Below are positions 17,271 through 52,159 of a stretch of DNA of 64,000 nucleotides, piece after piece. The first letter of the stretch is position 1; the number at the start of each line of letters is the position of its first letter. Origin of the DNA: Craspedostauros australis (Eukaryota); NCBI GenBank assembly GCA_030167865.1, contig JALAGF010002968.1, forward strand, positions 1-64,000, given 5' to 3'. The position numbers were made by a program, and so were the translations under genes. The notes beneath the pieces were generated by a model, which saw only the letters and a program-made list of their open reading frames with translations, ran no database searches and had not been told where the DNA came from.

Positions 17271-17330
17271 AGTGCAAGCGTGAGTCCGAGTGCAAGTGCA
17301 AGTGTAAGCGCAAGTGGAAGTGGAAGTGCA
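17271..17330. repeat. Degenerate hexamer repeat (AGTGCA-like)
   Basis: agtgca/agtgta/agcgca/agtgga units in tandem upstream of the prenyltransferase. Confidence 0.7.
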
Positions 17331-17394
17331 TTCAGAACTCATACTCGGACGAAGACCCAGCCGAGCGCAACGGCGTTCGCACGGACAGTGCACG

Positions 17395-26051: not shown

Positions 26052-28461
26052 ATGAGCATGAGTGGGACGCATCACCAGAACGCTGCGTCGAGCTTGACAG
26101 GTCACCATCAGGCGCAGCAACAGCATCAACAACAGCAGCAACAGCATGTTCGCATCCAGGGACATGTGCAGATCCAACCTCAGCAGCAGCAGCAGCAACA
26201 GCCACAACAGGTAGCAGGGGCGCCATCAAACGGAGCTGTGCTGGATCTGTCCTCGTTGGAGCATCTGCAAGCGCATGCGGTGCAACTGTCGGCTTCGGCT
26301 GGCCTCACCTCCATGTCCAACGGGGCCAACCCCGCAACAGCGAACGGTGGCGTGCAGTACCAGCAGTCTCCCATTTACCAGCATCATCAACAGCAGCAGC
26401 AACGGCAACAACAGCAGCAGACGAATCTCGGAGCTCCCGCCACGGCCCCAGCGCCTGCCCACCAGACGATCGCGGCACCAGCAATGCACGGTCTCAACCC
26501 ACAGGCCCCTGCTCAGCTCGCACCGCAGCCAATCATCCCGCAAGTCCAGCAGCAGCAGCAACAGCCTCGGCAAGTACAACAATGGAAGGCGCCACCATCA
26601 CAACAACAGCAACAGGTGCAACAACAATCGCTCCTCCCCAAGCACTCCAATGCTGCGGCTGCAGCAGCAGTGGCGGCAGCTGCCGCGGCGAATCCATACT
26701 TGTACCTGCAACCTCAGATGATGGCCGCAGCGGCTGCGGCAGCTGCTGCTGCAGCGAACGGATTGCAACCCATTTCGGCGGCCCCTGCTCAATCACCCTC
26801 CAATGGAAAGCATGCGATCGCCGCCGCTCCTCCGCCCACCACCATTCCAATCGCACCTCCCGCTGCACCTCAGATCCAGGCCGCGCCATCAGCTCCTGGG
26901 ACTGCCGCAACCCAACCGCCGGCCTTCCTCATCCCAAACCCCGTCGTCGGCCAGCCACCAAAGACGAACGCACCGCTTCACTTTGGCAACGCGCCCATAT
27001 TCCCAACAACGGCAGCAGCGGCCGCCGCGGCTGCCTCCATCCTTCCGAACCACCTCGTGCCACATTTCACCTCCATGGTTGCTGCTAATTCGGCCGTGGC
27101 GGCAGCGGCGCAACAGCAAAGAACGACGCCGATCATGCCACAGCCGACTCCAGCCGCGCAAATCAACCACGCCGCAGCGGCGGCGGCAGTTGCGGCGGCT
27201 GCTGCGGGAGCAACAAGCGGAGTCAAACGGCAGGCGAATCTCATTGCGACTGACACCAACAACCCTTCCATCACTCCCACGTCAACCACAACCGATCGCA
27301 CGGGCGGTGCTGCCAATAAGAAGCGACAGTTGGCACCGTCCGTCATTCCGTCCTCCACGAACCATGCCAATGGAACTGGCGCCACGACGACACCATCATC
27401 CCAGCGTGGATCTTCTCCGCACCATACAGCGCAGACACCACAAGAGCACCATCATCAGCAGCACCATCATCTCCACCAACAACTGCCACAAGGCATGGGT
27501 GGCATGGGGATGGTGCCCAATCTGAGCAGAATGGAGTTGGAGAAAATGTCACCCACAGACCGTCGGCGTCACGAGCGCAACCTGCGCGAACAGCAGAGAT
27601 CGTCCAAGATATCCAACCAGATCAACGAACTGCGCGACGTCCTGTCGGAATCGAACGTGCCCTTCAAACCCAACAAGTACTCCATCCTCCTCAGCGTCGT
27701 GGAATACATCAAGCAACTGCAATCGCGAGCGATCATGCTCGATGCAGAACACCAGAAGCTCATCATGACCATCCGCCAAACCAACGAGATGGTCAACGCG
27801 GGTGCGACGCCGAGCTCGGCGGAAGAATCCATCAACACCGCCAGCCGCAACGGCAGCCTACCGCACCAAGGACACGACTCCGACATGCTCTTCGTTCAGG
27901 GTCTGGACTACCAATCCTTGTTCGACCAATGCCCCGCCGCGCTGGGCATCGCCGCCTTGGACGGGCGGATATTGGAGTGCAATCCGGAATTCCAAATCCT
28001 AATGGGCCTCAATCGAGACGATCTCCTCAAGCAGAGTCTCTTCAACCTCGTCAAGCATCATCAGGAAATATTCGGTGCCATGGCAGAAATGCTCAAGAGC
28101 GCCGAAAACGCGAAGAAGCTGGGGCAGTTGATGTTGCAAAATACGGCCGAAACCGTCAAGAGCCGACATTGGAGCGGACCAGTCGTGTCGAAGCGTGATA
28201 AGCAGGTGAGCGGCGCATGTGTGTTGGATGTGCGTATGTATATGCACGGTAGAGCATTGCAGTGTGTACGTTTGGCTTTGAACATGAACTTGCAGAGGAC
28301 CTCTTTCTCACGCACTTGCTTTCTTCGCATCCTTTGATTTGAAATATTCTGCGTCTCCATCAAACCACTTTCATGTGCCACAGTTGCTGATGAACATCAC
28401 GCTCACGCTGGCATCGGATGGCAATCCCAAGTTTTTCAGTTGTGCATTGACTACCGTCTAA
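26052..28461 (+). CDS. bHLH-PAS transcription factor, diatom bHLH1a/1b (RITMO1) class, copy B (2 exons: 26052-28205, 28384-28461; 743 aa)
   Basis: bHLH ERNLREQQRSSKISNQINELRDVL..FKPNKYSILLSVVEYIKQLQSRAIMLDAEH and PAS LDYQSLFDQCPAALGIAALDGRILECNPEF. The intron at 28206-28383 (GTGAGC..CAG) gives LLMNITLTLASDGNPKFFSCALTTV*. Confidence 0.92.
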
Positions 28462-31248: not shown

Positions 31249-34200
31249 TCAGGCAGCGATGCCAGTGTCATCGCCGAAGCAGCTGTAGCACATCTTGGCG
31301 CTGCCGTTGGATCGGTGCTGTGCTCTGATGACCGAGCAGTGTCTTCTGTACAGCATCTGGAGACCTGGCAGCCCGAGGCTGCGTTCAAATTCCGAAGGAG
31401 GGGCAGGGCTGGCGTACACAACCGGTGAGGGGCTCGGCATTGCGCCGTCGGCAGCCGAAGATGCTTTCGCTGCGGGTGCGTCATGCTTCTTGATGTACCG
31501 GCCACCATGATGCCGGCCTTCGACAGCCTTCTTCATGGGTCTGACGCCGCTGTTAACAGGATGGCTGTGCGGGCAGACATCGCCGAAGGGACAGCCGCGC
31601 GATCGAGAGTGCGATGCGGTTGAGCAAAGCTTCGTCTTGTATCGTCGTGGCGAGTACAAGATCTCCTCCGAGGAATGGGCCTTGGTGCACTGCGCACCCA
31701 GAGGGCATTCGTTAAGGATGAAGGAGTCTCGGCCTCCGCGCCTGTCCGTTGCAGCAGAGCACACGGTGACATGCTGGCACATCTCGCTGTCGTAGTGCAC
31801 CTTGCGAGGGTCTCTGCGGAGCCAACCGTCGTTGATCTCGACGTGGGCGAAGCCGCACAGCTCGTGGTTGTGATCGTAGCGCTTCGAGCACCACGTGGTG
31901 CGGAAGCTGCAGAGATCGGCCATGGTCATCTGCCCCAGAGCATCGTCCTTGCGTGTGGCGTCAAAGCCCGCGATGTCGCCGCCGTCGGCGATACCGGAGA
32001 CGGGGATGCCGACTGCGCTCCACGGGAACTGTTCACGTGTCGGGTGACCTCCGAAGAAGGCCTTCCATTCCTCACCAGAGAGCTGCAAATGCGAAGCGTT
32101 CGCGGTGTCGCGAATGAATTCGTTATGGCAACGAAATACGTCTTCGGCGGATCGCACGTTCTCGTTGAAACAAAGCAGTACGGCCCGCTTGGGTCCTTCT
32201 GCGGCAGCTGGGTGGTCCGATTCGGGAGCGTTGTCCTTGCTGGAGGAGGCGTCGTTGTTTGCGGCGCCCGATGCACCTGTGAGGCGTGGTGATGACTTGG
32301 GGGTGGGAGGTTTCTGACCTCTGTCTTCGGCATCCTGCCTCGATGCCTCGATGACCTCGTGCTTGTTGACGACGAGGTTGTTCCATGGAGATGGCAGCTG
32401 GAGGAGCAATGCGGAATCATCCGTGGCCTTCGGCGTGAAGGAGTCACGGAAGGTGTCGCCGTTCTCCTCGGTGCCATCCGATCGTGGGATGATGTAGTGG
32501 AAGCAAGAGTTGAGAATGATCTGCATGCAGCGGTTCACCTTGGTTCGTGTGATCGTTCGGTTGTCTATCTTCTGCGCGACGCATGCGTGGACGCCTGATT
32601 GGAGCTGCTGGCGGGAGAAGTAGCCAAACTCGTTGGCAAGCTCCCGTCCCACCAACCATGTCACCAAGGCGACCGCTCTCGATGTGCCCGGTTCGTACAG
32701 GCAGGCCTTCTTGCGCAGCAACGTCTTCAGTATCTCCGAAGACGAGCGGTGGGCACCAGACATGCCTCCGTGATGTGGACTGCCTGGCGATTGGCCCATG
32801 CCGCTGAAGTGGCGGCCCGAGTGCGCGGGTGGCTGACCTCTCGCTCCGCGTCCATTTCTGGGAGGTGTCAGGCTTCGGCTGCGACTTTTGAGATGCGGGG
32901 AGGTGTTGTGGGGATGCCGCTTGTGCTGTGGCGAATGCACATGCGATGCGAAGTGGCCCGCGTGAGCACCAGAACGAGTTTCGCTCATCGTCGCGATTCC
33001 ACGACTGGCGGTGCCGTGATGTGCCCCACCGGCTCCCACTGGTGTAGCCGCAGCGTACTGCAGGTGTGGGTGTGGATGCTGTTGGTGTTGATGTTTGTGT
33101 TGCTGCTGTTGATGTTGATGAGACAGCTGGATATGATTTGCCCACGTTGGGGTTGCCGTTCTTCGCTGGTGCGGGTTTGGGCCGATGGCCTGAGGTTGAA
33201 ACGCCCCCTGTCGCGCCCGTTGTGGCGGCAACGGAGGAGTTTGAGATGATGCCATGTGAAGGCCTCCGTCGTTGCGGAAGCTTGCCACACGTTGATGGGA
33301 AGTTGTAGCGGCGCCCGGAGCACCGTGCAAAGCCTGAGGCTGGAGCTTCCACGCTGGTCCCGTGAGTTGCATGTCATCTCCCCACGATCCGATCCTCCTG
33401 TGGCCGGGGCCCGACGGTGCGGAAAGGAGAGTCGATAGCATCGATGGAAAGTCCTCCATCTTGATGTCCGCCCCCAATGACGCTTCATCGGTGGACGGTG
33501 CTGTCGAGACTGTGGATGGCGTTCCCATCATGGGCACCTGCGTGGTCGCATTGCTGTTGTCCGCGCCATCCTCCGTTTCAAGGTCAGTCTCGTCATCTTC
33601 ATGCAGAGTGCGACCACTCGCAGCAGCTCTGTTTGATCCTCTCGTAGGAATGGGACGTGTAACATTACCCCGGCGGTCTCCACCTGGTGCGCCTGCCCTG
33701 GCACCACCGATGACGCTCATGGTGGCGTTGGCTGCGAGGTCCGATTGCGGTGCTTGCTTCGTTTCGTTGAGCGCAATGCTGTCCAACGATGACATCGGTG
33801 GTGACGATGCTCTTGCGCTTACTCCAACTCCCACTGCTGCCGTGGTTGCTGCTGTTGCGGTCTTGTGATTGATGTTTGCACTGTCGTGCGTGATGGGTGG
33901 CGTGACTGTTGCTGTTGCCGTGATGTGTCTGGGAACGGTGCGCTGGCGTTGCGACAACGGGCTATATCGTGAATCGTGGCTGCCCATGGCTGCTTGCGTA
34001 CCAGTGCGATGGGATCGATGTGGGTGAGCTTCCGGCTTTTGCTGGTCCTCTGCTCGTTCCTGGTCGTACTGTTCTTGTCGCAGTGTCTCGTTGTGATTTG
34101 GCAACACAGCAAAGTCGTTAACGGACCTGGACGGTCTCAGCGCGATGTCCGCGGCAGTTGTCTGCGACGAAAACGGGTCGATTTGTGCAGGTCTGACACT

Positions 34201-34276
34201 GGTTCTGTGGACGCTGAGCAAACTTGACGATGGCAGCAGGAAAGCGTTGTGCTGTGGCTGTCTCAGTTGTTGCAGT

Positions 34277-34314
<38 letters not shown>

Positions 34315-35265
34315 GGGTTGGGGTTGTTGAGATTGAAACTGGAGTGGCAATGTGTCAGAACTGTTGACTGAGAATGGCTTCGTGTCAGTTTCTGTGTTTG
34401 TGGCTGTGTCTGTGTCTGTATTGAAGAGTATGCTTTGATTTGTGTTCCACACAAGAGGTTGTTCTCGATCGCGGTGATCAGAACCAAAATGAAGTGAAGA
34501 GAAGGGTCCGGTCGGCAGTATTGATGATGTTGTTGCTGGTGCTGGTGCTGTTCTCTGTGTTGTTGTGGCAAATTGTGGATGATTCTGTTCCGGAGCAAGT
34601 TCTGTGATTGCGCCAGGCGTGGCCGTGGAAAAGCCGCGCACACACGATTGGATGCTGGTTCCGCTTCGATTTTCTTCGGCTGTTGGTGGGTAATTTCTGA
34701 CACCACCTGTCTTGCTCTCGTTTTGCCCCTGTTGTTGCTGGCTGGTGATTTTCGAGCCTCCACCTGTCGTGGATTGTGCTGTCGATCCCAGAGACGAAGC
34801 CCAGGTTTGGTTTCGTGTTTGGGTTTCCGTGTCCAAACTGATGGCGTGAGTGTGATTGTTATCGATTGGGGCTTGGTGTTGTCGTGTTTGCGATTGTTGT
34901 GGATAGGTCAGGTTTTGTTGCAGCTCCTGATGGTCTGGTGTTTGAAAGTTCCGTTTTTGATGTTGTGGCGACTGTGGTGGTGGAGGAGATGATGACTGGA
35001 ACATGAATGAGGATGTTTGCGAAGGCAACGATGACACATCCCCGACACGGCCATCAAGTTGACCGTCGCCGAAGGAGGAGGAAAGAACCGTGCTTCGTTC
35101 TTCTTCTTTGTTGATGTCTTCTTGTCGATGTCTCGTTTTGAGTCGGTGATTCATCATCCGTGTTGGATCGTGGGCACAGTCCTTCGATTCTGATTGGTGC
35201 AGAGGCCACGATTTGGGAATGGTTTCTTTGGACAACGGGACTGCGTCGAGTTTCATCGAGACCAT
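31249..35265 (-). CDS. Large protein with C-terminal Unkempt/TZF-like CCCH zinc-finger array and long disordered N-terminus (about 1338 aa)
   Basis: FRTTWCSKRYDHNHELCGFAH..RRDP..Y...C..CPLGAQCTKAHSSEEILYSPRRYKTKLC..CPFGDVCPHSH. Uninterrupted 4-kb ORF; first ATG at 35265, true start uncertain. Confidence 0.85.
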
Positions 35266-37609
35266 GTGTGTTGTCGGTGACAAGTTGTGGCTGGTGCCGG
35301 TTTTGCTGTTGTTCGCACAGTTTTTTTACCGTTGTGGTTGTCGTTGCCGCTGTGTTGTTTGTGCTGTTGCTTTTGTTGCTGTGTTGTCGTTGCTGATGAG
35401 GTCGGGGGAGAGGTCGACAATGGCGCTGCTCGCAACTCCGTGGCTGGGCTGTCGTGTTCCGTCGCCGATTTTACGATTGCGAACTTGAAGGCAGGAATGA
35501 AAAAGAGAGGTCTTGTTTCACTTCACGCTGTGCTCAGCTTCGCGCGCCCAGTTCCTGCGCGTGGTGGTTGCTGATGTTGATGATGATTTTGATGCTGTCG
35601 TGTTTGCCTTGACGAATGCGGGGGGCCTTCTGTGCTGTGCTGCGCTGCACCGTGCGTGGAGTTACAGATGGTTGTTCGTTCGTTCGTTCTTCCTCACACA
35701 CACACACGCACTTGCTCCTGGCTCTGCGTCTCTGTCTCTTGGTCTCCTCGCCGTTGACTCGCAAGGCAGATGTCAGGCAAGAGACGATGGCTTCGCTTCC
35801 GGACGACACCACCTCGATGGTTGCGGTATTGCCGTTGTCGCTGCGATCGTTGATGTGGATGTTGATGTTGATGGTCTGTGCGTATCGTATCCTCTGATGA
35901 GTACCGTATGTCGTGTTGTCCGTGGTGCAGGCACAGCGCTTGTCGTGTCGTGATCGTTCGCGTTCTCGATCTCCTGTGTGGTGATGATGGTGATGAGTGA
36001 GTATGTGTGGGATGAGTGTGTCGTGTGTGTGCTGTGACTGGGGTGGTCTGTTTTTGTCGCAGCGATCATCCACGGTGCTCTTGTTACGAGGCGAACACCG
36101 TCCGTTGGAGCAAATTCGGAAATTCAATTCAAATTGTTGTTTGCTTTTTGTCTTCCGCGCCGCGCCAAATCGGCCGACCGACTCTCTCCCAAGTTGACAC
36201 TGCCACTAACACCACCAACGATGACACACCTCCAATCACACAAAAACTCCGAAAATAGTCGTTGTGCACTCCGAACAGATCAGCAACTCCACGCGCCGTT
36301 TGGGATGCTCACAGATGTGGCACTTCTGTCTCCTCACAATCTGCTCGTATCTGTGTAGCTTCCGAGTTCTTTCTCTTGGTGTTGTTTCCTCCTCCACAGG
36401 CCTGATTCGTCTTGGTGCTTTGATTGTCTGCACGTCCACGTTGAGTATGTTTGTGTTTGCACCAACCTCCTTGTCGCCGTCGCCGTTGTTGTTGATCCCA
36501 AAGCGCCTTTGCGGAACGGGATGGATGACGATGACGCTGTTGTTGCTCTCTTGTTGTCTTTCTTGATCGCTTCTGGGGAGCGCGCTAAAATCGCCAGCTC
36601 TGCACTCCTTGTCATGTGTGGAATGTTGGCGTCAGCCATCCCCGCGTGCATGCACACGCTGCACGTGAATGTGGCGATACCAACATCTCCATGCGAAACC
36701 TTCATCGTGCTTCGTGATGGGCTTGCTCGCTTGTGACGGTTAACACTCTGGTGCTTGTTATTGCGCGCAGTCGCTCGTTGGTGCGCCCCCGTGCAGCGCA
36801 TAAAACTGTGTCCACGCAACCACGCTGCACAAATACGATTCAACCAAAGACAAAGCTGGACGGAGAAAATTGGTTTCAAATCCGCAGGGTCCACGTTTGC
36901 AACTCCACCATGTTGCACACGTTACCGTGCACAATTGACATGATTGTGGCGAAGAATATCGGTTTGGGAGACGTTATTTGTCCGGTCAATTCTGCGGTGC
37001 GCTTTGAGTTTGTTAAATGTGCAACAGAGCGCTCCACGCCAAAGCTGCGCGAGAAATAGTGCCATGGTTGTCACTCGTTGTCGGATCAATTTGTGTGGCC
37101 ACACACAAAGCACCAGTTCGTCACAATGCGTGGCTGGCTGTGGCTGTGCCTGTGGTTTGTTGATGCGTCCGTTGAGGTGTCAGGCAAATCACTCCTCGAT
37201 TCTCCAATTCTCCGCTGTCCAGTTCTTTTTGTGTGATGCGGCTGTCAACGTCTCCGCGTGTCACGTACAGAACGTCGAAGAAGACGAAGAAGACACACAG
37301 AGAGAAAAAATCCACTTCAACTCGGTCACGATGCAGTTGATCGAAGGAGTCATTGTGTCCACGAGCCCGGATCGGCACATCACCAAGAACAGAAAAGATA
37401 CCCAAAGCGCCCACAGCCAACCATGATGTCACAAGATGTGCCTCTCCCTCTCTCTCGGCCTGTCGGTTTGGATCCCTTCCAGAGAGCATCCAGATCATCA
37501 ACCCATCACCACCCCATCACTATTACTATCGCTACCGCTACCGCTACCGCTACTCTCCCATCGCTTTTTCACTGCTCCACCATACTGTTCGTGGATCCTG
37601 TGTGTGGTC

Positions 37610-39196
37610 ATGAAGTGTCGATTACTTCACATCGCCTGCCTCGTGCAAGGCATCTCGGCCAAGATTCAGAGGCGCGGCGACCTTGAATCTTCGGCATCAA
37701 CGTCATCCCTCGGCTACGCATCTGATTGGCCTCTTCCTTCGTCGGCATCACCGGCGTCACCGCAGTTGGTGTTGCTATCTGCAATGAACCCTCTGTTGGA
37801 CGCTCACAAATCCTGGAACACATTCCAGCAACGCCGATCACGCTTCGATGGGCGGTGCAGAACAACGTGGCAAGAAAATCCAACTACGACAACATTCTTA
37901 CGGTCGGCGGCGATCAAATCCAGAGATGGGAGCCATCTCGTCAGGAGCCATCTCGTCTGGAGCCATCCACGGATTCGGCAGGACGCACCCAGCTTCAGAG
38001 ATGCCGATACCGTCGTGCTGGATAGGAACCGCGCGATCACCGCCGTACGTGGTGGAGCCATCACGGAATCTGCGACAGCAACGACGGCAGCAACCGCCAA
38101 CACGAATGGCGTGTTAAGCGCCTTGCTCGCGATGATCCAGTTCATCGAATCGAGCGAGACCCGGTGTTGGATACTGTTGTTTGCTGCCATTCTTCTGGAG
38201 ACCTTTGGTGCAACACTGATGAAGCTGGGACGGGATCAAAACTCCTTGAAGATTCTGGCTCTCGCGCTCTCCGTTGAGTTGACCAGGTGAGTCTGTGCCA
38301 ACGATTGGCTCCTGTGTCTGAATCATGGCCGTGCTGTGATGGTGTTGATCAGTGTCAGAAACTTGATCTTTGTGTGAATGAATGAATGGACAGGCGCTCG
38401 CATGCTCTGTTGGGAATGTCGGAACACTGGTCCATACTTCGATGCGTTATTATTGTTTGGAGTGCCCTGTTCTTCTTTTCCGGCTGTGCACGAGAGTGTG
38501 GTGAAGGGCACAAGCCATCAATGCTCTCAAGGAGATGCTGCATCAAATCACTCAACCTGCCACTTCGCTTTGCTTGCCCATGCAGCGTATCTGGATTCGC
38601 AATCGCCTTGGAGAACATCGATGTCAGCGTGGCCTACGCGGTAAGTGAGAATCGCATGGCGTGTTGGTGCTTCTGTCATGTGCATCACACCCCTCCTTGT
38701 TGGCACGGACCCGCACATCGGTGGTATCATCCGTTCATGTGGTGCGACGGAGAGATTGCTTTGGAAGAGGCTCTCTCAACACAGACGTGTTGCACCCGTA
38801 ATTGTGCACTTCTGTGTTGGTCGATATGATGCTGCGCCATGAATGCTATTAAATGTTTGACCGACTGCTGGTCATCGGTGTACTGTAGCGAGTTGTCGGA
38901 TGCCACTCTCACCTGCTCTACTCTAACCTGTTTGTGATACTTCATGCCATACCATACCATACCATACCATACCATCCTGCCTACTCTACTCTACGCTACT
39001 CAACTCTCTCTATGCTCTGTCACACTGTGATCTCTTCCCCAATTCCGCCTTGCAGGTTTGGGCTGCGCTGGGCACGGCGATAGTATCCGCAGCGGGCATA
39101 TTGCTATTCAATGAGAGCTACGATGCCATCAAGTTGTGTTGCCTGGCAATGATCATCGTCGGTGTCGTTGGGTTGAATCTGCGAGACTCGCATTGA
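37610..39196 (+). CDS. Small multidrug resistance (SMR, EmrE/QacE-like) transporter with about 180-aa N-terminal extension (3 exons: 37610-38286, 38586-38640, 39056-39196; 290 aa)
   Basis: Introns 38287-38585 (GTGAGT..CAG, phase 2) and 38641-39055 (GTAAGT..CAG, phase 0) yield WILLFAAILLETFGATLMKL..SVSGFAIALENIDVSVAYAVWAALGTAIVSAAGILLFNE..IIVGVVGLNL, with E14, S43, Y60 and W63 equivalents. Start codon less certain. Confidence 0.88.
38947..38975. repeat. (CCATA)n pentamer repeat in SMR intron 2
   Basis: About six tandem units. Confidence 0.9.
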
Positions 39197-39562
39197 GATA
39201 GGTATTATACGTACGTACGAGTATGCAAACGCCACGGCATCAAATGGAAGCACAAGTCGTCAGGACGTCAGGAGTAACTATTGTGCTATCAGGAGTAATC
39301 GCACTGGTACAACTCCCTCTCTCTCTCTCTCTCTCTTTGCTCCAGCGCAGAGGATACTTCCTTCCAATCTCTGCACGAGTCTGTTATGGCAGCAACGATC
39401 CTTGTGTTCGTCGCCAATCTGATCCTCAACAGCCGCATTGCTCGATCCGCACAATACTGTTGCATGTTGTGGCCGTATGCGTTGTCCGCGATGATGCTGC
39501 CACTTGGATGCTCCACATTGCTGCTCCGCGCTGCTGCCAATTGACCGCAATGATGCCGCTCC

Positions 39563-41106
39563 CTATTTGTCCTGATCCGGAAGACACCAGATCTCTTGGT
39601 ACGTTCGGATGAGATCCGGCAACGCCATGCGGCGCGGCAGCTCAAAGGTCCGCGAATTGCTGGCCTTGGCCAAGCCCTTCGCCAGTTCGTGCTGCCGTGG
39701 CGGTTCCGGTTTCTGCGGGATGGTGTCAACCGTCTGCTTCTTCCATTCCATCCTTGCTTTCTCCCACGTTTCGAATCCGCAGTTGTGAAAGTGACGTCCA
39801 TCTGCCCGGTTCCGGATGAAGCCATCGTCCGACCATGAATTCTTGGTGGTTCCAACGACCATGAAGGAGCCTCGTTTTGCTTGCTCGTTGGTTTGGCCCG
39901 ACGCGGACTTCGCCTGGTCGTCGGCGTTGCTCCTATCCCCAGGTCTTCTCCACCATTCTTCTGAGGTTGGTGCTCCAGGTCGGATGTTCTCTGTTGTATA
40001 ATAGTATTTCGTATTGCATGATAGATGGCATTGCGTGCGAACGTACATGCGTATTCGTGCAATTGCGTGAGACGAATGAAATGAGACATGAATGGGGCAC
40101 TGCGGCATGATGTGGGATCCAATCCGATCATTGCAAGGAGTCTTGCGTACACACAAGCACACACACTCATGGCAATCACAAATGGAGTCTCTCCACCTCT
40201 GTCCGTAGGAAGCCGAAACCGTTCGGGCGGGAGCTGCACGATACAACCACCAAACAAAGTACGAGTCGACCAAGAGTGTGCACTGACTGGCAAGCGCGAA
40301 CAAGGACTCCATGAGGAAGCCAAGCGCGTGGACGGGCGGTGCTCGCATCGATTGGACTCACCGACCCTCCATGCCGCGGTGGAAGAAGTGTCCGAATAGA
40401 AGCTCTCCTCTTCCGTGTAGCTGGGTGTCTTGGAGGCGGACGACCTCCTCTTCTTGCTCTTGCATGTGAACAACGAACGGGGGCTGCGCCGTGATCCCTC
40501 CGGTGAAGACGATGAGGCAGTCGTCGAAGTGGAGTGCGCTGGTGATTTTGGCTGCGCACGTCGCCGACTTCCCGCTTTGGACATGATGTTCTGCATCCAC
40601 ATTACAAGCGTTGTGCCGAGCTTCTTCTTCGTCTTCTTCCTGCTATTGCTATCGCTGTTCTTGCTTGGTGCTCTGCCGCTTCTTCTGCGTTCTTGCTTGT
40701 GCTTGCACTGATTGGTGTTTGTGTTTGTGCTCGTATGGTTGCGTCTGGTGTTTCTCCTGGTGTTGTTCGTCTTCGTGGTTGCACGACTACGATTGCTTCG
40801 ATGACTATTTGTGTTTGGACGACTGATCGAGCGGCTGCTTGGGCAAGAACTTGCGCTCGTCAAACTACGGATGGATTTGTTCCTGGCTTTGCTGTGATCC
40901 TTGTTGCTGCTTCTGCTGCTGCTGCTGAGCTTGGTCCAACTCGACTTCGGTTGCTTTGTGGGATGTATCAGTCGGGAGGACCTCCTCGTGGTGTTGCCTT
41001 TGGTCCGTGCAGTGCGATGCGTCCTTTCCCTCTTGGTTGTTCCTGTTGCTGCGGAAGCCGTGATTGTTGGTGTCACTGGTCTTGCTCTTGTGTGGTCCAA
41101 GACCAT
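39563..41106 (-). CDS. DUF4050 (Gag1-like clamp) domain protein with basic disordered N-terminus (2 exons: 41106-40362, 39990-39563)
   Basis: C-terminal HNCGFETWEKARMEWK..FELPRRMALPDLIRTYQEIW is typical of DUF4050. The phase-1 intron 40361-39991 (GTGAGT..CAG) joins the two ORF frames. Start uncertain. Confidence 0.72.
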
Positions 41107-42730
41107 CGTCGGTCCCAATTCTTCGCTTGGTGGGCGTCTCTCTGCGATTGTCGGAACTTGTTGTTCTTGTTTCTTTCTTTCCTCTTTTGCCCTGTTGTCG
41201 TTGCTGGAGGCAGACAGAGACAGACACAACACGTAACGAAACGCAAGTGCGCGATTTCACGATTTGTGCCAACGAAAGCCACGCGTGTGTGTTCGGCCAA
41301 GCTCTTCGTGTCTCTGCTCGTGTCGTGGTGCCACGTGCGACCGTTTCAGTGTCGTTCAACCGAGTAACACATGTATCGCAACGGAAACCAAACATATGAG
41401 AGATGTTCAAACATTAATAGTCATATCAACGAGCGGGCGCGTTCAACAGTCATGTGTGTGCGCACGCCATCGCCGCATCTCCCACCTCATTGCACCGGTT
41501 TGCGGACTGACAAACTCGACAACGCTCCGCTCTCCTCCGGCTGTTTGTTTGGCGCCAACCTCCGTGTTACGATCTACCACACGATTGGGTAGCCTCAGAC
41601 ATGAAGGCTAGAGAGAGAAGAGTTGAACGGATCGGTGCATGGTGTAGTGTGTGACATGAGAAAGCAACCAGCAGAAGCATGTGCTGTACGAGCTAGCTCG
41701 TAGTGTGACAGGATCTGTGACGACCCTTGCTTTCCCCGTATGGTTCTCTCTAATAGTCGTAGTCGAGAGAGGATTGTCGTGGTGGTTAGAAAGCAATTTG
41801 CAGAAGATGGTCGCAAACTGGAGGCGAATCTATCCAAGACCAAGGATGCCATGCAGAAGGCAACTCACATCAAAGCTGACAGCGTCATGTTGCAGTACCA
41901 ATACATAATATAATAGTACACATACCAAGCCTGCCACAAAATCAAAGCGTTTGTTGGTTCCCAAAGTTACTGATTCGTATTGCTATGTTCGCTTGCTTCA
42001 TTTCTTCTGTTGTTTCGTCTTTCATTGTTTTGCGTCGTATTGTCTTTGTGCTACTCGTACGCGCTGTTGTCTGTATAGTATGTGTATGATATGTGTGCGT
42101 ACGTGTGCGTTGATGGGAGTGGATTGCACACAGAATGGTTGTGAAAAGTGGACGTCGGAACGCGATCTGCGTGAACAGATCCCGCGACGACGTTCCCGTC
42201 ATCGTCCGTTCTTTCCTGATTGCTGTGCCACCCCCTCCCTCCAACTTGTTCCTGTGATAGTGTTTGCGCTTATTTCCACTGTAGCTGCGATCGGAATGTA
42301 GAATACTGTATCGTCCAATTGCCAACACAGCATTCATCGAGTGGGGGACAATCCAAACAGTCAGCCACGCAGGCACAGAGAGAAATCGGGATGCAGAGAC
42401 AGCGCACATTGCTTGGTCCCACACCCACCTCTCGTTCCTGTTTGACTGACTGTGGACATTGTCCATCCAAACCCTTTTCCCTGGTTCCGGTGCAGCATTT
42501 GATATTTTCGCGCTTTGTCTCTTTGTCTTCATTCGTCATGTCCCAACCTCTTCTTCTCCTGGCACGCTGCTGGATGTTGTTTCCAGACCCCGCATGCGAG
42601 CCGAGGTTCTCCGTTTCTTGCCTAATCCCTTCGCCGTGCCGCAGCCGCTGCTGTTCCATGAAACCAATTCGTTGCGTTTGCGCGGAAAGGGGCTTTGTTC
42701 TGAGCGAGGAATGCCTCTTCTTGTGTCTGT

Positions 42731-46103: not shown

Positions 46104-47804
46104 TCAGGCAGTCGCATCGCCATTGCCATTGCCATCAACGAGTCGCGACGAGAGGTTATTGAAGCTATCCGTCTCGGCATCCGTGTCATACTCGGCGTCC
46201 TCGTCCATGTGCTGCAAGCTGATGGTGCCGGAATCCGTCGCCTGCGAGATGACGCGCTCCACACCGTGGCGCAATCGCCGGATGTCCTGGATGGTCTCCG
46301 ACGGCAGCGTGCTGCTCCAGAAGGCGTCTCGGAAGTTCAAAGGTTGGCTGAGCACGGTGGGAGGCCGGTACGATGCGGACCGTTCCGACTCCGTGACGCC
46401 GCCGAGGTTCTCCGTTCCCATCAAGTTGTTCATGGTGTTTTGCTGCTCCCGTTCGGCGTTTTCCATGGCCTCGCGCACCGTGCTGGGCAAGTACTCAGTG
46501 TAGGTGAATGTGTAGGAGTGAGCGATGGCGAAGAAGACCATCTCTATGCAAACGCAGTAGTCGATGAGCCCGTTGGCGACCTCCTCGCCGGTCCATTTTC
46601 CAATGTTGTCGATGACCCCGTGCGACTGCAAGTAGAAGATGACCACGCCCTGCCACCAGGTGAAGAAGACGACGCCCTTGACGCAGAGGAACTTGCCTAG
46701 CGGATGCCAGTTGATGGGGTACCGCAGGTCGTGGCTGACGACGTGGAAGAGCAAGACGAGGCAGTAGAGGGAGTACATGACGCTGATGTTGATGACGAAG
46801 GCCATGTAGGGATACGCTGCATCCCAACGGAAGTCTCCCTCGTTGTAAACGTCGATGCTTTGGAAGCCGAAGATGAAGATGGTGGCGACCGCCTTGACCA
46901 CGACGTACTGCAGCACGCCGTGCTTGGTTTGCACCATGAACTCCATCCCCAGCTTCCATGGTTGCAGGACGAAGTTGAGCGGGAAGGTGTGGTGCGCCGC
47001 GCGGCCCGCCTGGTTGGGGCTCTGCGCCGCCTTCATTCGGAGGGTGCGCACCAAAGCCTCCTGCCCTCCCAGAAGCTCAATGAGATAGTAAAAGAAGCTG
47101 GAGATGACGTAGGCCTCGTAGAGATCCCGGATGGTGTCGATGTAGATTCTGGCGCCTCGGAAACGAAGGCTGAGCCAGCTCTGGACGGCGTAGAGCGGGA
47201 CCATCCAGAGGATGCGAATGACGTACTTTTGCACGTTGGGCATGTACCAATGCGTGAAGTGCAGGTAGACGAGACGGATGGAGAGGATGAGCGTCCCCAG
47301 CACCATGACGCCGGCCGACTGGAAGGCCGCGAAGTCGAGCTTGCGATGCACCAGCTGCTTGTACGTGACGATGGGGATGATGACGAGCATCGCGAGCAGC
47401 GTGAAGGTCGCCACGAAGTTGCCGATCTTGCGCAGCACGAGTCGCACGCTGCTGTGCTCGCGACCTGCCGCGGTGATGAATTGGGATGCCGTCATCCCCG
47501 GCGCATCGCCATCGTCGCCGTTGTTCAGATTCGCGCCGCCTCGCTGCAGCAACGACGATGCCAATTCGTCAGCATCCTCGTTGCTGTTGTTGCCGAGGCC
47601 TGATTGTGGCGTCACAGAATTAGCAGCGTTGGTGGCGGAATGGAACCCCGATCCGCTCATCGACGACGACTGCTGCTGCGACAGGGCGGCTTTCTGCAGG
47701 TCCCTCTCCGCGTATTCCTTGACGAAGACGAGCTCCTCCAGCGGCTCCTCCGGGTTGGGATTGTCCCGTCCATCTCCACCGTCACTTCCTCCGGTGGACG
47801 TCAT
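46104..47804 (-). CDS. TMEM184/OST-alpha family (Solute_trans_a) membrane protein (566 aa)
   Basis: Motifs QKYVIRILWMVPLYAVQSWLSL, IRDLYEAYVI..F, KHGVLQYVVVK, PLGKFLCVKGVVFFTWWQ and CVCIEMVFFAIAHSYTF. Confidence 0.93.
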   Translation of the reverse strand: MTSTGGSDGGDGRDNPNPEEPLEELVFVKEYAERDLQKAALSQQQSSSMSGSGFHSATNAANSVTPQSGLGNNSNEDADELASSLLQRGGANLNNGDDGDAPGMTASQFITAAGREHSSVRLVLRKIGNFVATFTLLAMLVIIPIVTYKQLVHRKLDFAAFQSAGVMVLGTLILSIRLVYLHFTHWYMPNVQKYVIRILWMVPLYAVQSWLSLRFRGARIYIDTIRDLYEAYVISSFFYYLIELLGGQEALVRTLRMKAAQSPNQAGRAAHHTFPLNFVLQPWKLGMEFMVQTKHGVLQYVVVKAVATIFIFGFQSIDVYNEGDFRWDAAYPYMAFVINISVMYSLYCLVLLFHVVSHDLRYPINWHPLGKFLCVKGVVFFTWWQGVVIFYLQSHGVIDNIGKWTGEEVANGLIDYCVCIEMVFFAIAHSYTFTYTEYLPSTVREAMENAEREQQNTMNNLMGTENLGGVTESERSASYRPPTVLSQPLNFRDAFWSSTLPSETIQDIRRLRHGVERVISQATDSGTISLQHMDEDAEYDTDAETDSFNNLSSRLVDGNGNGDATA

Positions 47805-49729
47805 CCTCGCAGGTGTACGCGTAGTGCAATGGAGGAGAGCGCAGGTTCTGTGCTGTCAATGGACGATGGAGATTCCCTGAGGCAGACAATCAGCCAAGCG
47901 AGAATCCCTCCTGTTCTCTGGTTCGAGGTTCAAGTCCGCAAATCACAACAACGATCACAGCGACGGTCACAACGGCACGAAGCGAAGCCTTTCTTCGTAC
48001 GCGTACTCGCAAGGAGTGCCTGGAGCGATGCCTTCTATTAGATGGACGCAAGTAGAACTGCAGCTGCCTGTATGATGCTATTGCTGTCTGAGTATCGATG
48101 GCAACGGTGGTTGATCCTTTTGTCGACCCTTCGTTGCTCAGAGGCTTCTTCTTCTCTCTCTTGTCGCGCTCTGTTTGGCGTTCCTCGATCGTCCCACCAG
48201 GTTGCGGAGTGCAAGGACCACGACACCTCCCTCCGTGGTATTTTCCTCCTTTGTGCCACGGAACAGGATCCCAGAATCAAGGAAGAGGAAAATTGAATCG
48301 TGTGGAAAGACTCTGTAGTTTTCGGCGTTGTTCGTGTGTTCGGGTCGTTCGGGTCAAGCTGGTCGCCTCCATGCGACTGACTGAATGACGTACGTTTTAT
48401 TAGCAACCCAATTCACCATTTCAACATCTGTCTCCTAGTCGTGTATACGGTCTGAGAAAGGTGTCGAAATCGAGCTTTCGTTTCTTACTTTGGTGCAATA
48501 TCAACAAAAAATGGCAAAATTGTTGTTCATTGCCTGTTTCGATCAAACCAACCAAGAACAAGCAGAAAATGGAAAGGAGGAACCAAGGCGATGACGTGCA
48601 GATGCGCGTGGAGCTGGAAACTTGGTTCGTGCGGGAATGCGCACGAGTCTGCAAATGGTGTGCGTCTCCGCCTCTTTCTTTCCAACACGAGTCAAAGAGG
48701 CGTCAGAGGGGTTGCATTCCGGGTGGAGAGCAGAGTATATGAATCTCGAACCACAATCGACTGCTTGCTTTCCTGGGATTGTGACGCCCTACTCCAACCT
48801 GTCCCACATACTCCTTGCTCCTTAATGCTCCATACGTACGTACTCCAGGCATGCCCCTTCAATGCTACAATTGCAATCCAGTTCCCAGCTGAGTTGCAGA
48901 CATCCAAAGAGAATTCCTCGTGTATTTCGGCCCGTCCCTTGAGACTTGGTATGCCATAAATATTAACGTTGGTTTCGCCGCTGGTTTGTGCATGATGTTG
49001 TTGTTACAGTTGCTGTTGTTGTTGTTGCCCTCTCCACGCATGGCTCGTATGCGCGTGCGTATCCGTGTCCATCTCCAATGCCATTGGTGCCTTCATCTGT
49101 CACACTTTGTGAAGCTCCTCCTTGCATTGGCTTTCTCGGTTTGGTTTGTTTTCCCTCTTCTGCTGCATGGTGGCGCAATCTGTGACAGAGTTGAACGTTG
49201 CCCTGTCTTCACAGCACAGGAAACGCAACACTGCCAGTCTTGGGCGTTAGATGTTGTTAAGAATTCGGCATGTTCGCGGTCACGTGTCATCACCGTTGGG
49301 CCTAATTAGTGCCGACTTCAACAGCCCCGCAATGTCGCAGCGAAGCGCTCGAAGACACGGCGATTCCGACCGGAGCGATCGACTCCAACGAAGCCCGTGG
49401 GGGTTCCGAGCGTATCATCGTCCTGATCAATTCGTGTTCGTGGGAACGCGCAGGAAACGCATCAATCATGTTCCCGTTGTGTTGTCGTTGTTGTTCTTAC
49501 CAGCGGAGGTGCACAGAACGCTGAGTTCCTTCGTCCTCGTTGTTGGCGCCATCGTTGTTATCGTTGTTATCGTTGTTGGGCGTCTCTTGGGCGCATTCCT
49601 TGTCCCACAAATAGATGCCTGTTCTACCAATCAATCCGCAACCCACTTCAATCTTTCACAAAGAGGAGACTCGCACACTCCGGACACAATCACAAGACAC
49701 TACCACAAGACACAATCAATAAGCACACC

Positions 49730-52159
49730 ATGACAACAGACGAAGGACCGCACATGCAACTGCCACTGCAACTGCACATGCAGCAGCCCAACAACGAGAT
49801 CTCATCATCCAACAGGAATCGGTCAGGACGACGACGAAGACAAAGCAACAATCAGAGCAGCAATATTCAAAGCAACAACATTTTCAGCAACAGCCATTCA
49901 GCACATCAAACGCACAAACAGCAACAACGGCAAGCTTCGCAGCGCACGATCAACACGGAGGCATCGCCGACGGGCATCATGGACTTTCCCATCGACGACA
50001 ACCGCTCCAACCTGCTTTCCGCACTGAAGGCGGCGCAGCACCCATCCACCAGACAGTCGACCATGCGCCGTTCCAGGAGCGACGCCAGCGGCGACTTTTC
50101 GTTCGAGGCGCGCCAATCGACTGCAAGCAAACCGAACTCGGGATGGATTGTGGACCCGAGCACGAGCGTCAAGTCGCGTGCAAACACTGGTGCAAACGCT
50201 GAAGCAGGCACCATCCCGCATCGTCGACAACGAGCCACGCGTCGCCTTTCGATGGACTTGGAACGAGCGCCTGCTTCGTCGCGTCAGCTGGGACGACCGG
50301 GATCGCAACAGGGCAATCTCGCCGATCGACGCATGAACCGATCCTTCAGCAGCTTCGGAGGCGCCTTCTCGGACAACGACGATGACGACGACGCCAACCT
50401 GAACAACTCTGGCGACACCCACAACGACACCTTCGATGTGGATGTTTGGATCGGATTCCGCAACGACAGCTTCGCATCACGGCAGCAAAAGCTGGAGCAT
50501 GGGCTGGCGATTCGCGGAAAAGCATCGCAGCCGCTCCAATCGATGTCCGACACCACACCGATGATGAAGTCCGCAGCGGCAGCAGCGATAGCATCCTCTC
50601 TGGCTCCACCCAAGAGCCATTCCTTGGACGCATCGTGGCAAGCCTACTCGCCAATGCGCCAGCAGCGCAAGAAGATGTTGGACTCTGTCAATCATGCTCG
50701 CCCTAATGGCCATTCCCATTCAGAGTTGGGAAGCAGTTGCTCATCACTCAACGTCTCGGATCTGACGCCATCCACATGGAATGTCAGCGAAGTATCGAAG
50801 TCTACCATCACGCAAAGCGAGGAACTCGCCTTGTTTGGCCAGAGCTCGACCTCGACTTGGTTCTCCACGCCATCCAATGCCAGCGGCAGCAGCATCGTGA
50901 TGAACGACAGCGGGATCAGTCTCAACAGTCCCACGGCGTCCAAGCAACCCAAAGCAGGTCATGCGGATGATAGGGATGGGATTGACGAGTTCCCCAAATG
51001 CACCTTCCAAGGCGATGATGACTTTTACGAATTCGTCCGCCACAGGAGCAACACCAAGAAGCAGCAGGTGCCGAGAAGGGAGAGGCCTGGGATCACGCTC
51101 AGTGATGCCAAAGAGAGAAGGCTCGCACGGCGCAGCAGGAACAGCACGGCCGGCAAATCCCCACGAAGAGGAGCCACGCGCAACGACAGCAGCAGCAGGC
51201 AACGCAGAGCAAGGCGACTCTCCAACTCGGATTCAAACGTCTGTGTCACCGAGCCGGCTGCTGCGCTCGATAAGGAAGCGACCCCACGATCGCACCGCAA
51301 ATCCAGGACCCTGCCACCCAAGCCAGCAGGCGGCTCTGCCCGACAGAGGTCATCGGTATCGACTGACGGCCCGTCGCTCACGGATCTGTCCTCGCCGCGA
51401 CAACGCAGCCGCGGCAGCAGCCAAAGCCGCAAGAAGGTTGCAAGCGAAAGCGCTGATCTTGCAGCGCGCTCAGCCACGCGCAACCGCGCCAGCAGCCGGT
51501 CAAGGCGCCATGCGCAGCGTGTGACGAACAGCGGCAGCAAGGACAAAGCACGCGACGACAAGTACGTGGATGATGACGACGAGGATCTTCCCTTCGAAGT
51601 CAAGAAGATCTCCGAAGCGGTGTTCGATTTCCAACGTGTGCCCGCGAGAGCCAGTGGCACGGAATCGGATACAGCCGAGGACGAAGATGGTGCTGGAAAC
51701 GATACGATCCAGATCAATGCAAGCCGCCCTCACTCCGCCCGATCTCTGCGTGGCGCCTCGCTGGAAACACGCCAGAGCGCGAAGCACAGCGGCAGCAGCA
51801 GTGGCAGCGGACAGCCCTCCCGCAAAGGCAGGCACGGCGTCATGCGCTCCCGCAGTTCCAAGGGATCCATGCGAAGGACGACAAGCGCCACGAACGACCT
51901 GGCGACCATGAGACAGCATGCCCAGCCCAAACCCACCCGACGTTCAAGTGCTGGGTATGGGTTAACGCGGACACCGTCGCAAAGGCGAATGGGATCATCG
52001 CGCGCATCGACCTCGATCGCAGAAGCAACCGCCACCACAGATCAGGAGGAGGAGAACAACGAGATCAGCAGCTCCAGACGAAGCCGGCAGAAGCAGGATG
52101 ACGGCAGGCCCGGATCGCGAAGCCGGTCCAAAGCGCGCAGGAAGTCGCACAAGGCATGA
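49730..52159 (+). CDS. Hypothetical intrinsically disordered Ser/Arg-rich protein (up to 809 aa)
   Basis: 2.4-kb open frame after a CA-rich leader; low-complexity S/R/D composition; no domain recognised. Confidence 0.65.
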   Translation: MTTDEGPHMQLPLQLHMQQPNNEISSSNRNRSGRRRRQSNNQSSNIQSNNIFSNSHSAHQTHKQQQRQASQRTINTEASPTGIMDFPIDDNRSNLLSALKAAQHPSTRQSTMRRSRSDASGDFSFEARQSTASKPNSGWIVDPSTSVKSRANTGANAEAGTIPHRRQRATRRLSMDLERAPASSRQLGRPGSQQGNLADRRMNRSFSSFGGAFSDNDDDDDANLNNSGDTHNDTFDVDVWIGFRNDSFASRQQKLEHGLAIRGKASQPLQSMSDTTPMMKSAAAAAIASSLAPPKSHSLDASWQAYSPMRQQRKKMLDSVNHARPNGHSHSELGSSCSSLNVSDLTPSTWNVSEVSKSTITQSEELALFGQSSTSTWFSTPSNASGSSIVMNDSGISLNSPTASKQPKAGHADDRDGIDEFPKCTFQGDDDFYEFVRHRSNTKKQQVPRRERPGITLSDAKERRLARRSRNSTAGKSPRRGATRNDSSSRQRRARRLSNSDSNVCVTEPAAALDKEATPRSHRKSRTLPPKPAGGSARQRSSVSTDGPSLTDLSSPRQRSRGSSQSRKKVASESADLAARSATRNRASSRSRRHAQRVTNSGSKDKARDDKYVDDDDEDLPFEVKKISEAVFDFQRVPARASGTESDTAEDEDGAGNDTIQINASRPHSARSLRGASLETRQSAKHSGSSSGSGQPSRKGRHGVMRSRSSKGSMRRTTSATNDLATMRQHAQPKPTRRSSAGYGLTRTPSQRRMGSSRASTSIAEATATTDQEEENNEISSSRRSRQKQDDGRPGSRSRSKARRKSHKA

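Follow-up and report, generated by a model that had tools for sequence, protein, structure and literature searches.

The 64,000-nucleotide stretch of Craspedostauros australis DNA analysed here (assembly GCA_030167865.1, contig JALAGF010002968.1, positions 1 to 64,000; hereafter the window) carries on its forward strand, at 37610–39196, a three-exon gene for a small multidrug resistance (SMR) protein, which is almost certainly intact and native to the host eukaryote. SMR proteins, which we take to be family 2.A.7.1 of TCDB, are textbook dual-topology membrane proteins, with an antiparallel dimer as their working unit, and a minimal model of proton-coupled transport. The probability that this spliced, presequence-bearing SMR gene encodes a proton-coupled cation carrier of an internal membrane is put at about 0.7. 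A first-pass annotation of the sequence had proposed a domesticated bacterial SMR gene in a eukaryote, bearing introns and extended at the N-terminus. The evidence below supports that much of the proposal; its wider interpretation holds in part.

Exon structure and the SMR domain

The annotation had described three exons with GT–AG sites and consistent phases, and direct reading of 37610–38286, 38586–38640 and 39056–39196 bears this out. The parts of the gene, with transmembrane helices numbered TM1 to TM4, are as follows:

37610–38286, forward strand: exon 1, 677 nt, with the ATG, the extension (residues 1–184), TM1 and most of TM2, ending in phase 2
38162–38286, forward strand: first part of the SMR domain (residues 185–225; domain envelope 185–290)
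38198–38200, forward strand: Glu197 (GAG), equivalent to EmrE Glu14 and Gdx-Clo Glu13, the central proton/substrate carboxylate
38287–38585, forward strand: intron 1, 299 nt, GTGAGT...CAG, phase 2 within a Ser codon (AG/C)
38586–38640, forward strand: exon 2, 55 nt, with the end of TM2, loop 2 and the start of TM3 including the Tyr of ‘AYA’
38641–39055, forward strand: intron 2, 415 nt, GTAAGT...CAG, phase 0, with (CATAC)n and (CTACT)n microsatellites
39056–39196, forward strand: exon 3, 141 nt, with the binding Trp, the rest of TM3, TM4, a C-terminal His and the stop TGA at 39194–39196

The sequence ...CCCATGCAG (also read as ...CATGCAG) precedes exon 2, GTAAGT follows it, and ...CCTTGCAG precedes exon 3. 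Together the exons give 873 nt (677 + 55 + 141), or 290 codons and a stop, with 18 residues from exon 2 (ending in ‘AYA’) and 46 from exon 3. The frame is broken when exon 2 is left out, and the alignment with relatives is gap-free at both junctions. The database gene predictions P0005 and P0022–P0027 turn to nonsense precisely at the same exon borders, as read-through of these introns would produce. In a tblastn search of the window with five relatives, the three exons are matched collinearly and no other match is credible; a recurrent one at 15382–15534 (reverse strand), antisense within an open reading frame (ORF) of 943 aa, is dismissed as chance-level. A scan of 37610–38100 for hidden exons or splice sites finds neither a GTRAG donor nor a pyrimidine-tract acceptor, and Rfam returns 0 matches at E ≤ 0.1 over 36000–41500.

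Microsatellites occur in and around the gene: (CTACCG)4.7 at 37526–37553 just upstream of the ATG, (CATAC)6.6 and (CTACT)6.6 within intron 2 at 38943–39012, and (CT)12 in the 3′ region at 39313–39336.

The Pfam profile PF00893 (Multi_Drug_Res) matches residues 187–219 in exon 1 (profile positions 3–35, 16.4 bits) and residues 1–33 of exon 3 (positions 61–93), and the gap between the two matches implies that exon 2 supplies the middle. The HMMER check proposed in the annotation is passed by exon 3 alone, at 24.7 bits against the cut-off of 23.7; relatives score 59–72 bits over the full profile. A local hidden Markov model (HMM) was built from 16 relatives, with the window protein left out, and searched with the exons joined by script. 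The joined protein matches as a single domain over positions 1–106 (136.0 bits, E 3e-44, residues 185–290), whereas exon 1 by itself reaches 22.5 bits (positions 1–37) and exon 3 71.3 bits (positions 61–106). The complete four-helix SMR domain, estimated earlier at about 107 aa, is thereby found with 106 residues. Four hydrophobic peaks lie at residues 186–204, 215–233, 244–262 and 268–286. The AF2 model of the relative P0003 has a mean pLDDT of 76.9, which rises above 90 in the four helices at its C-terminal end. In Foldseek, the 12 best matches of this model are without exception Gdx-Clo or EmrE chains (target TM-score 0.68–0.87). The Fragilariopsis cylindrus relative P0006 aligns gap-free to Gdx-Clo residues 2–102 (E 8e-8) and to EmrE 10–103 (E 1e-5).

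These alignments of P0006 with EmrE and Gdx-Clo define the residue columns, given in the Gdx-Clo numbering of the HMM columns. Counts refer to the 63 members of the clade described below:

Column 13, central carboxylate: Glu in the window protein; Glu in 43 and Asp in 20 clade members
Column 16: Gly in the window protein; Ala in 45, Ser in 15, Gly in 2 and Cys in 1
Column 42: Ser in the window protein; Ser in 48
Column 59, the Tyr switch: Tyr243 in the window protein; Tyr in 61 and Phe in 2
Column 62, the binding Trp: Trp246 in the window protein; Trp in all 63
Columns 64–66, GxG: Ala-Leu-Gly in the window protein; first residue Ala in 52, Gly in 6 and Ser in 5, third residue Gly in all 63

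The TM1 carboxylate, the TM3 Tyr switch and the binding Trp are described as important in PMC9574504 and PMC7695847, and the GxG ‘fulcrum’ motif of TM3, a trait of the Qac and Gdx subtypes, is named in PMC9574504.

Conserved introns and contigs of a presumed RNA run

Metagenome contigs were scanned with the exon 3 peptide alignment; 106 stretches matched, and 19 encode relatives. The same three pieces are present in two Fragilariopsis-like metagenome contigs, L081 and L082 (GC 0.37–0.38), which are 63% identical to the exon 3 peptide of the window and 86–88% to P0006. Exon 1 of L082 ends in ...GTA AG/GTAAGT; its exon 2 (55 nt, 1613–1667) follows ...ATACAG, opens with C CTT TCG GGA TTT and ends in GCA TAC GCA/GTAAGT, and exon 3 begins with GTG TGG after ...AAAAAG. 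Both introns lie at the identical codon and in the identical phase in L082 and in the window, though the domains are only ~55% identical, and the position of intron 2 is also the same in L081.

A public sequencing run, X1, which is only guessed to be RNA, covers part of the stretch. Two of its contigs match with 0 differences, one on 38093–38286 and one from 39055 on. Position 38286 is the last base common to the spliced and unspliced forms, and 39055 is the first base common to both, since G is the last base of exon 2 as well as of intron 2. These contig ends fit a branching of the assembly graph between spliced and unspliced forms, which is a weak hint of splicing. No X1 contig lies over the introns, exon 2 or 37300–38092, and these blanks count neither for nor against the gene model.

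The contig starting at 39055 is 1572 nt long and continues across a neighbouring low-complexity open frame of 655 codons at 39292–41256 on the reverse strand, at a depth of 48.6 against 6.3. The end of this frame lies ~95 nt from the SMR stop, so that the two genes are convergent, and the frame has no Pfam match at E ≤ 1e-4. The contig may be mostly the transcript of the neighbour, with overlapping 3′ ends.

A eukaryotic clade apart from the prokaryotic SMRs

With exon 3 as the query, 6 of 49 candidates scored, among them P0006, which is labelled ‘Multi_Drug_Res-domain-containing’. With the domain of P0006, 64 of 445 candidates scored in a word-based search of cluster representatives. The matches are first 158–310 aa long with 46–73% identity, and then step to prokaryote-sized proteins of 105–124 aa with 32–47% identity; named in the first group are Pseudo-nitzschia multistriata, Cylindrotheca closterium and a Bacillariaceae metagenome-assembled genome. 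Three ORFs of MMETSP transcripts are marked complete, and all have the extension. A profile search of 1.84 billion representatives returns 4197 proteins at E ≤ 0.001, of which 52 reach E ≤ 1e-30. In the Atlas, two PF00893 clusters of 108 and 57 members lie near P0003; all members are Eukaryota, and Haptophyta are the second commonest group.

For the phylogeny, 212 proteins and that of the window were considered, of which the 160 spanning the whole domain were kept. A quick tree of these 160 rows places the window protein within a 63-row clade (SH-aLRT 98), in which 59 members have at least 35 aa ahead of the domain and the 4 short ones look like truncated models. A second tree of 124 rows combines the 63 clade rows with the 40 best of 93 full-domain prokaryote loci and 21 chosen rows. 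Here the clade is separated from the 40 named prokaryotes with UFBoot 99 and SH-aLRT 100, in 100% of 200 bootstraps, on a stem of 0.80. The phylogeny with prokaryotic SMRs that the annotation had asked for thus splits off a clade at 99/100, but the gene is no one-off, since its clade holds 63 representatives.

Within the clade, the window protein falls into a 16-row subclade (97/92) together with the proteins of all three named diatoms, P0006, P0009 (P. multistriata) and P0019 (C. closterium), the latter two labelled ‘EamA domain-containing’ or unnamed. These share the layout of the window protein, namely a hydrophobic start, a variable linker, RGG, a helix and the SMR domain, and the domains of P0006 and P0019 are 53–55% identical to that of the window. 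They differ in having Asp as the central carboxylate and extensions of 46–91 aa instead of 184. The literature found holds no function or localisation for the three. The best identity of the window protein overall is 58%, to P0003. The traits by which the clade was defined are an RGG 15–50 aa before TM1 and introns at the Ser42 codon and after ‘AYA’; the window protein has its RGG 38 aa before the domain and introns as in L082, in addition to its position in the tree.

The central residue of the subclade stands out for another reason. All 15 other rows have Asp where the window protein has Glu13, so that Asp in place of the otherwise near-universal central Glu of SMR proteins is fixed in these 15 relatives, from several diatom genera.

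Two further kinds of N-extended SMR protein were seen. One comprises P0162, P0170, P0179, P0183, P0201, P0204 and P0156, proteins rich in Ala, Arg and Pro with [LM]RGG before TM1; in P0204 and P0201, an ASAFAP-like cut has Phe or Trp as the next residue. This group lies outside the main clade in free trees, yet the approximately unbiased (AU) test does not reject the joining of two members to it (p 0.63), and the constrained tree is 7.6 lnL better. On this result, convergence is dropped as the explanation of the RGG in this group; the motif may be ancestral. The other kind, P0151, P0159 and P0211, forms its own starred group with acidic, Ser-rich, non-hydrophobic extensions lacking RGG and may represent another eukaryotic lineage.

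Relation to the Qac and Gdx subtypes

Conservation of Trp16 marks the Gdx proteins, whereas the Qac proteins carry Gly or Ala there (Kermani et al., PMC7695847). By this rule a column 16 without Trp indicates a Qac-like pocket, and the sequence accordingly predicts a pocket of the Qac/EmrE type, with Gly in the window protein and no Trp in any of the 63 clade members. On the NCBIfam Qac/EmrE/Ebr models, P0003, P0006 and P0007 reach 23–59 bits against cut-offs of 160–226; on the SugE model, relatives reach 40–57 bits against a cut-off of 126, with the control P0008 at 126.9. Relatives are about equally distant from the SugE, Ebr and Qac models (40–59 bits), and the exon pieces of the window score at most 32 bits on the subtype models. 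The nearest prokaryotic rows score best on EbrB/Qac, with 6 of 13 (7 with P0068) at E ≤ 1e-22 and none on SugE. Because the Qac/Ebr/EmrE cut-offs are missed, the protein is not filed as Qac and only resembles it; judged by profile scores, it is a member of the SMR family outside all four described subtypes.

Compared with EmrE, EbrA/EbrB and QacE, the window protein has the same four helices in ~105 aa, the TM1 Glu and the Gly/Ala position that follows, and it also has the ‘TLMK’-like stretch and the equivalents of Ser43, Tyr60 and Trp63 of the Qac exporters. It differs from these exporters in the first GxG residue (Ala), in Glu for Tyr40, in the 184-aa extension and the two introns, and in being nuclear-encoded. 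Gdx-Clo (PDB 6wk5/6wk8) is the best PDB sequence match of P0006 and the best Foldseek match of the P0003 model, and its Glu13, Ser42, Tyr59 and Trp62 are kept. The difference from Gdx/SugE lies at Trp16, replaced by Gly in the window protein and by Ala, Ser, Gly or Cys across the clade.

The N-terminal extension and its RGG boundary

An N-terminal part of about 180 aa with a short hydrophobic start and a VRGG motif had been noted, and all of these elements are present in the ~184 aa ahead of the domain. The features of this region are:

37436–37438, forward strand: alternative upstream ATG, in frame; a start here adds 58 aa
37610–37660, forward strand: signal-peptide-like start (residues 1–17), with a basic n-region, a core of 11–13 residues, small residues at −1/−3 and Lys at +1
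37929–37967, forward strand: 15-nt tandem repeat, in frame, 2.6 copies (5-aa unit), within the extension
38045–38056, forward strand: VRGG (residues 146–149), at the border between the variable extension and the conserved part
38132–38134, forward strand: internal in-frame ATG (residue 175), a rival start giving a product of ~116 aa that lacks the presequence

The best 11-residue Kyte–Doolittle window of the start is 1.98, at residues 5–15. No 19-residue hydrophobic window of at least 1.2 begins before residue 161, so nothing in residues 1–160 could span a membrane. Residues 18–145 contain 23% Ser and Thr, and 18 Lys and Arg against 11 Asp and Glu. The weight given to VRGG in the annotation proves justified, the motif being family-wide: a strict RGG within 50 aa of the domain occurs in 47 of the 59 extended members, whereas 1000 trials with these stretches shuffled yield it in 1.9 on average and in at most 7. 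Leu, Ile or Val usually precedes RGG, and Gly or Ala usually follows it. In the P0003 model, a short helix leads from RGG into TM1, and residues 33–87 are disordered.

In the bipartite plastid presequences of diatoms (ASAFAP type), an ER signal peptide is followed by Phe, Trp, Tyr or Leu at +1 and by few early acidic residues (PMC4329603, PMC12136025). A clearly hydrophobic start is found in 29 of the 59 extended members, and 10 match an ASAFAP-like regular expression. The close relatives P0012, P0013, P0015, P0016 and P0017 have the site SG[TA]/F[HY]P, a diatom plastid signature as in PMC4329603 and PMC3774753. The window protein departs from the ASAFAP rule, with Lys after the putative cut GISA/K and Asp and Glu within 10 residues, and a search for an ASAFAP site further upstream yields nothing credible over 36300–38100. 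Targeting to the plastid interior is doubtful for this protein. The lack of an aromatic +1 residue and the presence of charges directly after the cut are both reported for periplastidial presequences by ASAFind 2 (PMC12136025); the start appears to fit a signal of the ER or periplastidial type better than a stromal one, and a plain secretory signal also fits.

The extension is more likely than not a targeting sequence that enters via the ER. ER or complex-plastid membranes are a plausible location, with a complex-plastid membrane as the final site, as opposed to another endomembrane, at somewhat less than even odds. Ubiquitin-tail mimicry and a mitochondrial R-2 site were considered as possible readings of RGG, on grounds of resemblance; exon 1 has no Pfam ubiquitin match, and LRGG does not appear in the literature among the matches listed.

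Orientation in the membrane and proposed mechanism

The annotation had reasoned that a presequence would fix the orientation of a dual-topology protein, which would then need an oppositely oriented partner, cleavage of the presequence or a different mode of assembly. The presequence has this effect only in a protein that retains the extension or is inserted at the ER; insertion at the ER with the extension still in place would call for a partner or a parallel dimer. Cleavage fits best among the three ways out. The Lys+Arg bias of the mature part (from RGG), for which the loop borders are approximate, lies between −2 and +2 in 47 of the 63 clade members and is −1 in the window protein, close to the median of −1 in 77 prokaryote-like rows. 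Each of the three named diatoms has one protein among the 64 hits. On account of the RGG boundary, the near-zero bias and the single protein per named diatom among the hits, removal of the extension and a homodimer inserting in both orientations are favoured. A cut near RGG, followed by assembly of the mature part into an antiparallel homodimer, is nevertheless put forward tentatively, with the odds rather against it.

An SMR protein of fixed topology, with its N-terminus in the lumen and either an oppositely oriented paralogue (compare EbrA/EbrB) or a parallel dimer, is an unlikely alternative for which several points speak. By established topogenesis rules, a long hydrophilic extension behind a signal-like start normally places the N-terminus in the lumen; P0162, P0170, P0179, P0183, P0201 and P0204 could in principle be the partner lineage; and the EbrA/EbrB models give relatives about the same scores as other models do. 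In the mature part, however, the charge bias is near zero and not one-sided, and tblastn finds no second SMR gene within the 64-kb window. The occurrence of the three named diatoms once each among the 64 hits also counts against a paralogue, weakly, given a word-based search of cluster representatives. As to the candidate partners, they look near-balanced by eye, the AU test does not reject their union with the main clade, and their Ala-, Arg- and Pro-rich make-up suggests other, GC-rich organisms.

In the overall reading proposed here, the gene is functional and nuclear, most likely from a diatom, and encodes a 290-aa precursor consisting of a signal-like start, a fast-evolving linker rich in Ser/Thr and Arg/Lys, the RGG with a juxtamembrane helix, and the SMR domain. 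The gene would go back to a single old acquisition of a prokaryotic SMR from the Qac/Ebr-like side, with the two introns gained afterwards and conserved among diatoms. Judging from the residues and from knowledge of the family, two protomers would make up one transporter, in which the membrane-embedded pair of Glu197 would bind a small organic cation or, alternatively, protons. Alternating access would be driven by the Tyr switch and the Trp of TM3, resulting in H+/cation exchange in which the cation would move towards the more acidic side. H+/organic-cation antiport is, from the conserved residues, the likelier activity, and the chance that the substrate is a metabolite or toxin of the quaternary-ammonium type, not guanidinium, is just short of even. 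A more inclusive proposal is that an SMR lineage of great age, targeted to an organelle, is common to the algae with red complex plastids. Its presequence would be cut at [LIV]RGG, and the four-helix product, with next to no charge bias, would insert in both orientations as an antiparallel homodimer and export compounds of the quaternary-ammonium, betaine or choline type in exchange for protons. Taken as a whole, this proposal has a low probability.

Evidence weighed against the proposed carrier and further alternatives

Several findings weigh against a spliced, presequence-bearing, proton-coupled carrier. No read or contig of X1 crosses either splice junction, so that the case for splicing comes from homology, from the conservation of the intron positions and from the contig ends. 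The search for relatives of the extension is negative, both for exon 1 against 1961 candidates (123–394 aa) and for residues 1–165 in the Atlas. The codon score of residues 1–145 is −0.013 per codon, the best of the six frames but reached by 12% of random windows; it lies below the 5th percentile (0.063) of the training coding windows, and the secure exons are also low (0.02–0.07). Translation of the first ~145 residues is putative. Among the extended clade members, 30 of 59 have no clear hydrophobic start and may be truncated models or use other targeting. The window protein has charges directly after its putative cut and no aromatic +1 residue for stromal import, and its RGG departs from the stromal-peptidase site published for diatoms, where position −2 is Leu (PMC3774753). 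Within the domain, the first Gly of the TM3 GxG is Ala, as in 52 of 63 clade members, and Glu223 corresponds to EmrE Tyr40, a site at which Tyr or Phe is found in 57 of 63; Glu there could alter or impair binding. Relatives fall short of the curated subtype cut-offs, at best 40–59 bits against 92–288. Finally, no donor lineage can be named, the prokaryotic relatives being 33–45% identical (best 80 of 518) and spread over archaea and many bacterial phyla. An endosymbiotic origin from cyanobacteria was considered and is unsupported, with one Nostoc at 33% among the same best 80 of 518.

The weak codon score and the lack of relatives of the extension could also mean that there is no presequence, that translation starts at the ATG at 38132 to give an SMR protein of ~116 aa, and that the upstream frame is a 5′ untranslated region; the start of the sole X1 contig on exon 1, at 38093, precedes this ATG by 39 nt. 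The start of a contig of depth 6 is, however, not a transcript start, and Met175 is not kept in 16 aligned relatives, in which conservation reaches further upstream, to the RGG and the helix that follows it. The frame is open without a stop for 287 codons from 37427, the GC3 of the extension is 0.62 against 0.47–0.52 in the introns, and extensions of at least 35 aa are present in 59 of 63 clade members, including the three complete MMETSP ORFs. A start at 38132 is therefore improbable.

A decaying, non-functional relic of a transferred bacterial gene would account for the Glu at the Tyr40 position, for Gly at column 16 where the subclade has Ser, Ala or Cys, for a nearest relative only 58% identical and for the unusually long, repeat-bearing extension. 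Against this, the frame is intact over three exons with canonical splice sites, the residues of the catalytic core are all kept, exons 1 and 3 carry contigs of X1, a run guessed to be RNA, and an end branch of 0.29–0.37 is ordinary for the tree, which makes a relic very improbable. Bacterial contamination or an assembly chimera, suggested by the overwhelmingly prokaryotic distribution of SMR genes, has a negligible chance in view of two spliceosomal-type introns common to another diatom-like contig, eukaryotic flanking genes, a uniform window GC of 0.51–0.60 and the separation of the clade from 40 prokaryotes at 99/100.

Genomic neighbourhood

The window is eukaryotic nuclear DNA. Pfam matches identify the following ORFs around the gene:

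17308–18621, forward strand: Prenyltransf
20642–22801, reverse strand: bHLH
25878–28334, forward strand: bHLH followed by PAS
46107–47855, reverse strand: Solute_trans_a, 284 bits
57987–59366, forward strand: EamA/NIPA-like
60051–61589, forward strand: START

The two bHLH genes lie less than 6 kb apart, with bHLH domains of 36 bits each, and may be paralogues. Four ORFs of 910–1358 codons, at 13873–16701 (forward), 31252–35325 (reverse), 49427–52156 (forward) and 52733–56005 (forward), lack any Pfam family at E ≤ 1e-4. Open frames on the two strands overlap in some regions, such as 52733–56005 (forward) and 52952–54262 (reverse), which suggests a skewed composition. An assembly gap of 29 N is present near the window start, at 178–206.

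Comparison with known eukaryotic SMR proteins and implications

The annotation had taken SMR proteins to be regarded as essentially prokaryotic, and this is the stated view of the field in PMC10443351. There, the SMR-like genes of anaerobic fungi were presented in 2023 as the first in eukaryotes and claimed to be absent from other sequenced eukaryotes. The surveys PMC9574504 and PMC2716321 treat bacteria and archaea only in their available parts, and that of PMC2716321 contains neither ‘eukary’ nor ‘alga’. Putative EmrE homologues of Thalassiosira pseudonana, Guillardia theta and Emiliania huxleyi are mentioned in one sentence of PMC7240134 (2020). In the main text of PMC5462543, on the ochrophyte plastid proteome, ‘multidrug’, ‘EmrE’, ‘SMR’ and ‘EamA’ do not occur. 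In the literature found on algal and diatom SMR proteins, only PMC7240134 and PMC10443351 bear on eukaryotic members. The algal family is thus present in databases and has been noted once, and its introns, extension, RGG, clade structure and function are undescribed in the literature found.

Like the window gene, the SMR genes of Neocallimastigomycetes (Protein Sci 2023, PMC10443351) are encoded by a eukaryote, and the charge distribution of their products suggests dual topology. They are reported as intron-less, of about bacterial size and close to those of rumen bacteria, which indicates recent transfer. The window gene, by contrast, has two conserved introns and an RGG extension and belongs to a clade of 63 representatives on a stem of 0.80.

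By itself, the window gene is a modest result, as a somewhat deviant member of its clade. An old intron- and presequence-bearing clade in ecologically dominant algae means that the prokaryote-only picture of the family is incomplete. The clade also offers a natural test of whether a dual-topology protein can survive the move to eukaryotic targeting and insertion, and how, with the RGG boundary as a testable candidate for a processing or sorting signal. Were the inclusive proposal of a shared organelle-targeted lineage true, no dual-topology transporter would have been shown in a eukaryotic organelle before, and RGG would be a processing or sorting signal unlike the diatom stromal-peptidase site. 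To our knowledge, few carriers of small organic cations are known in internal membranes. In conclusion, for algal physiology the gene provides a candidate carrier of such cations (methylated osmolytes, guanidinium-like compounds, polyamines or cationic toxins) in an internal membrane.

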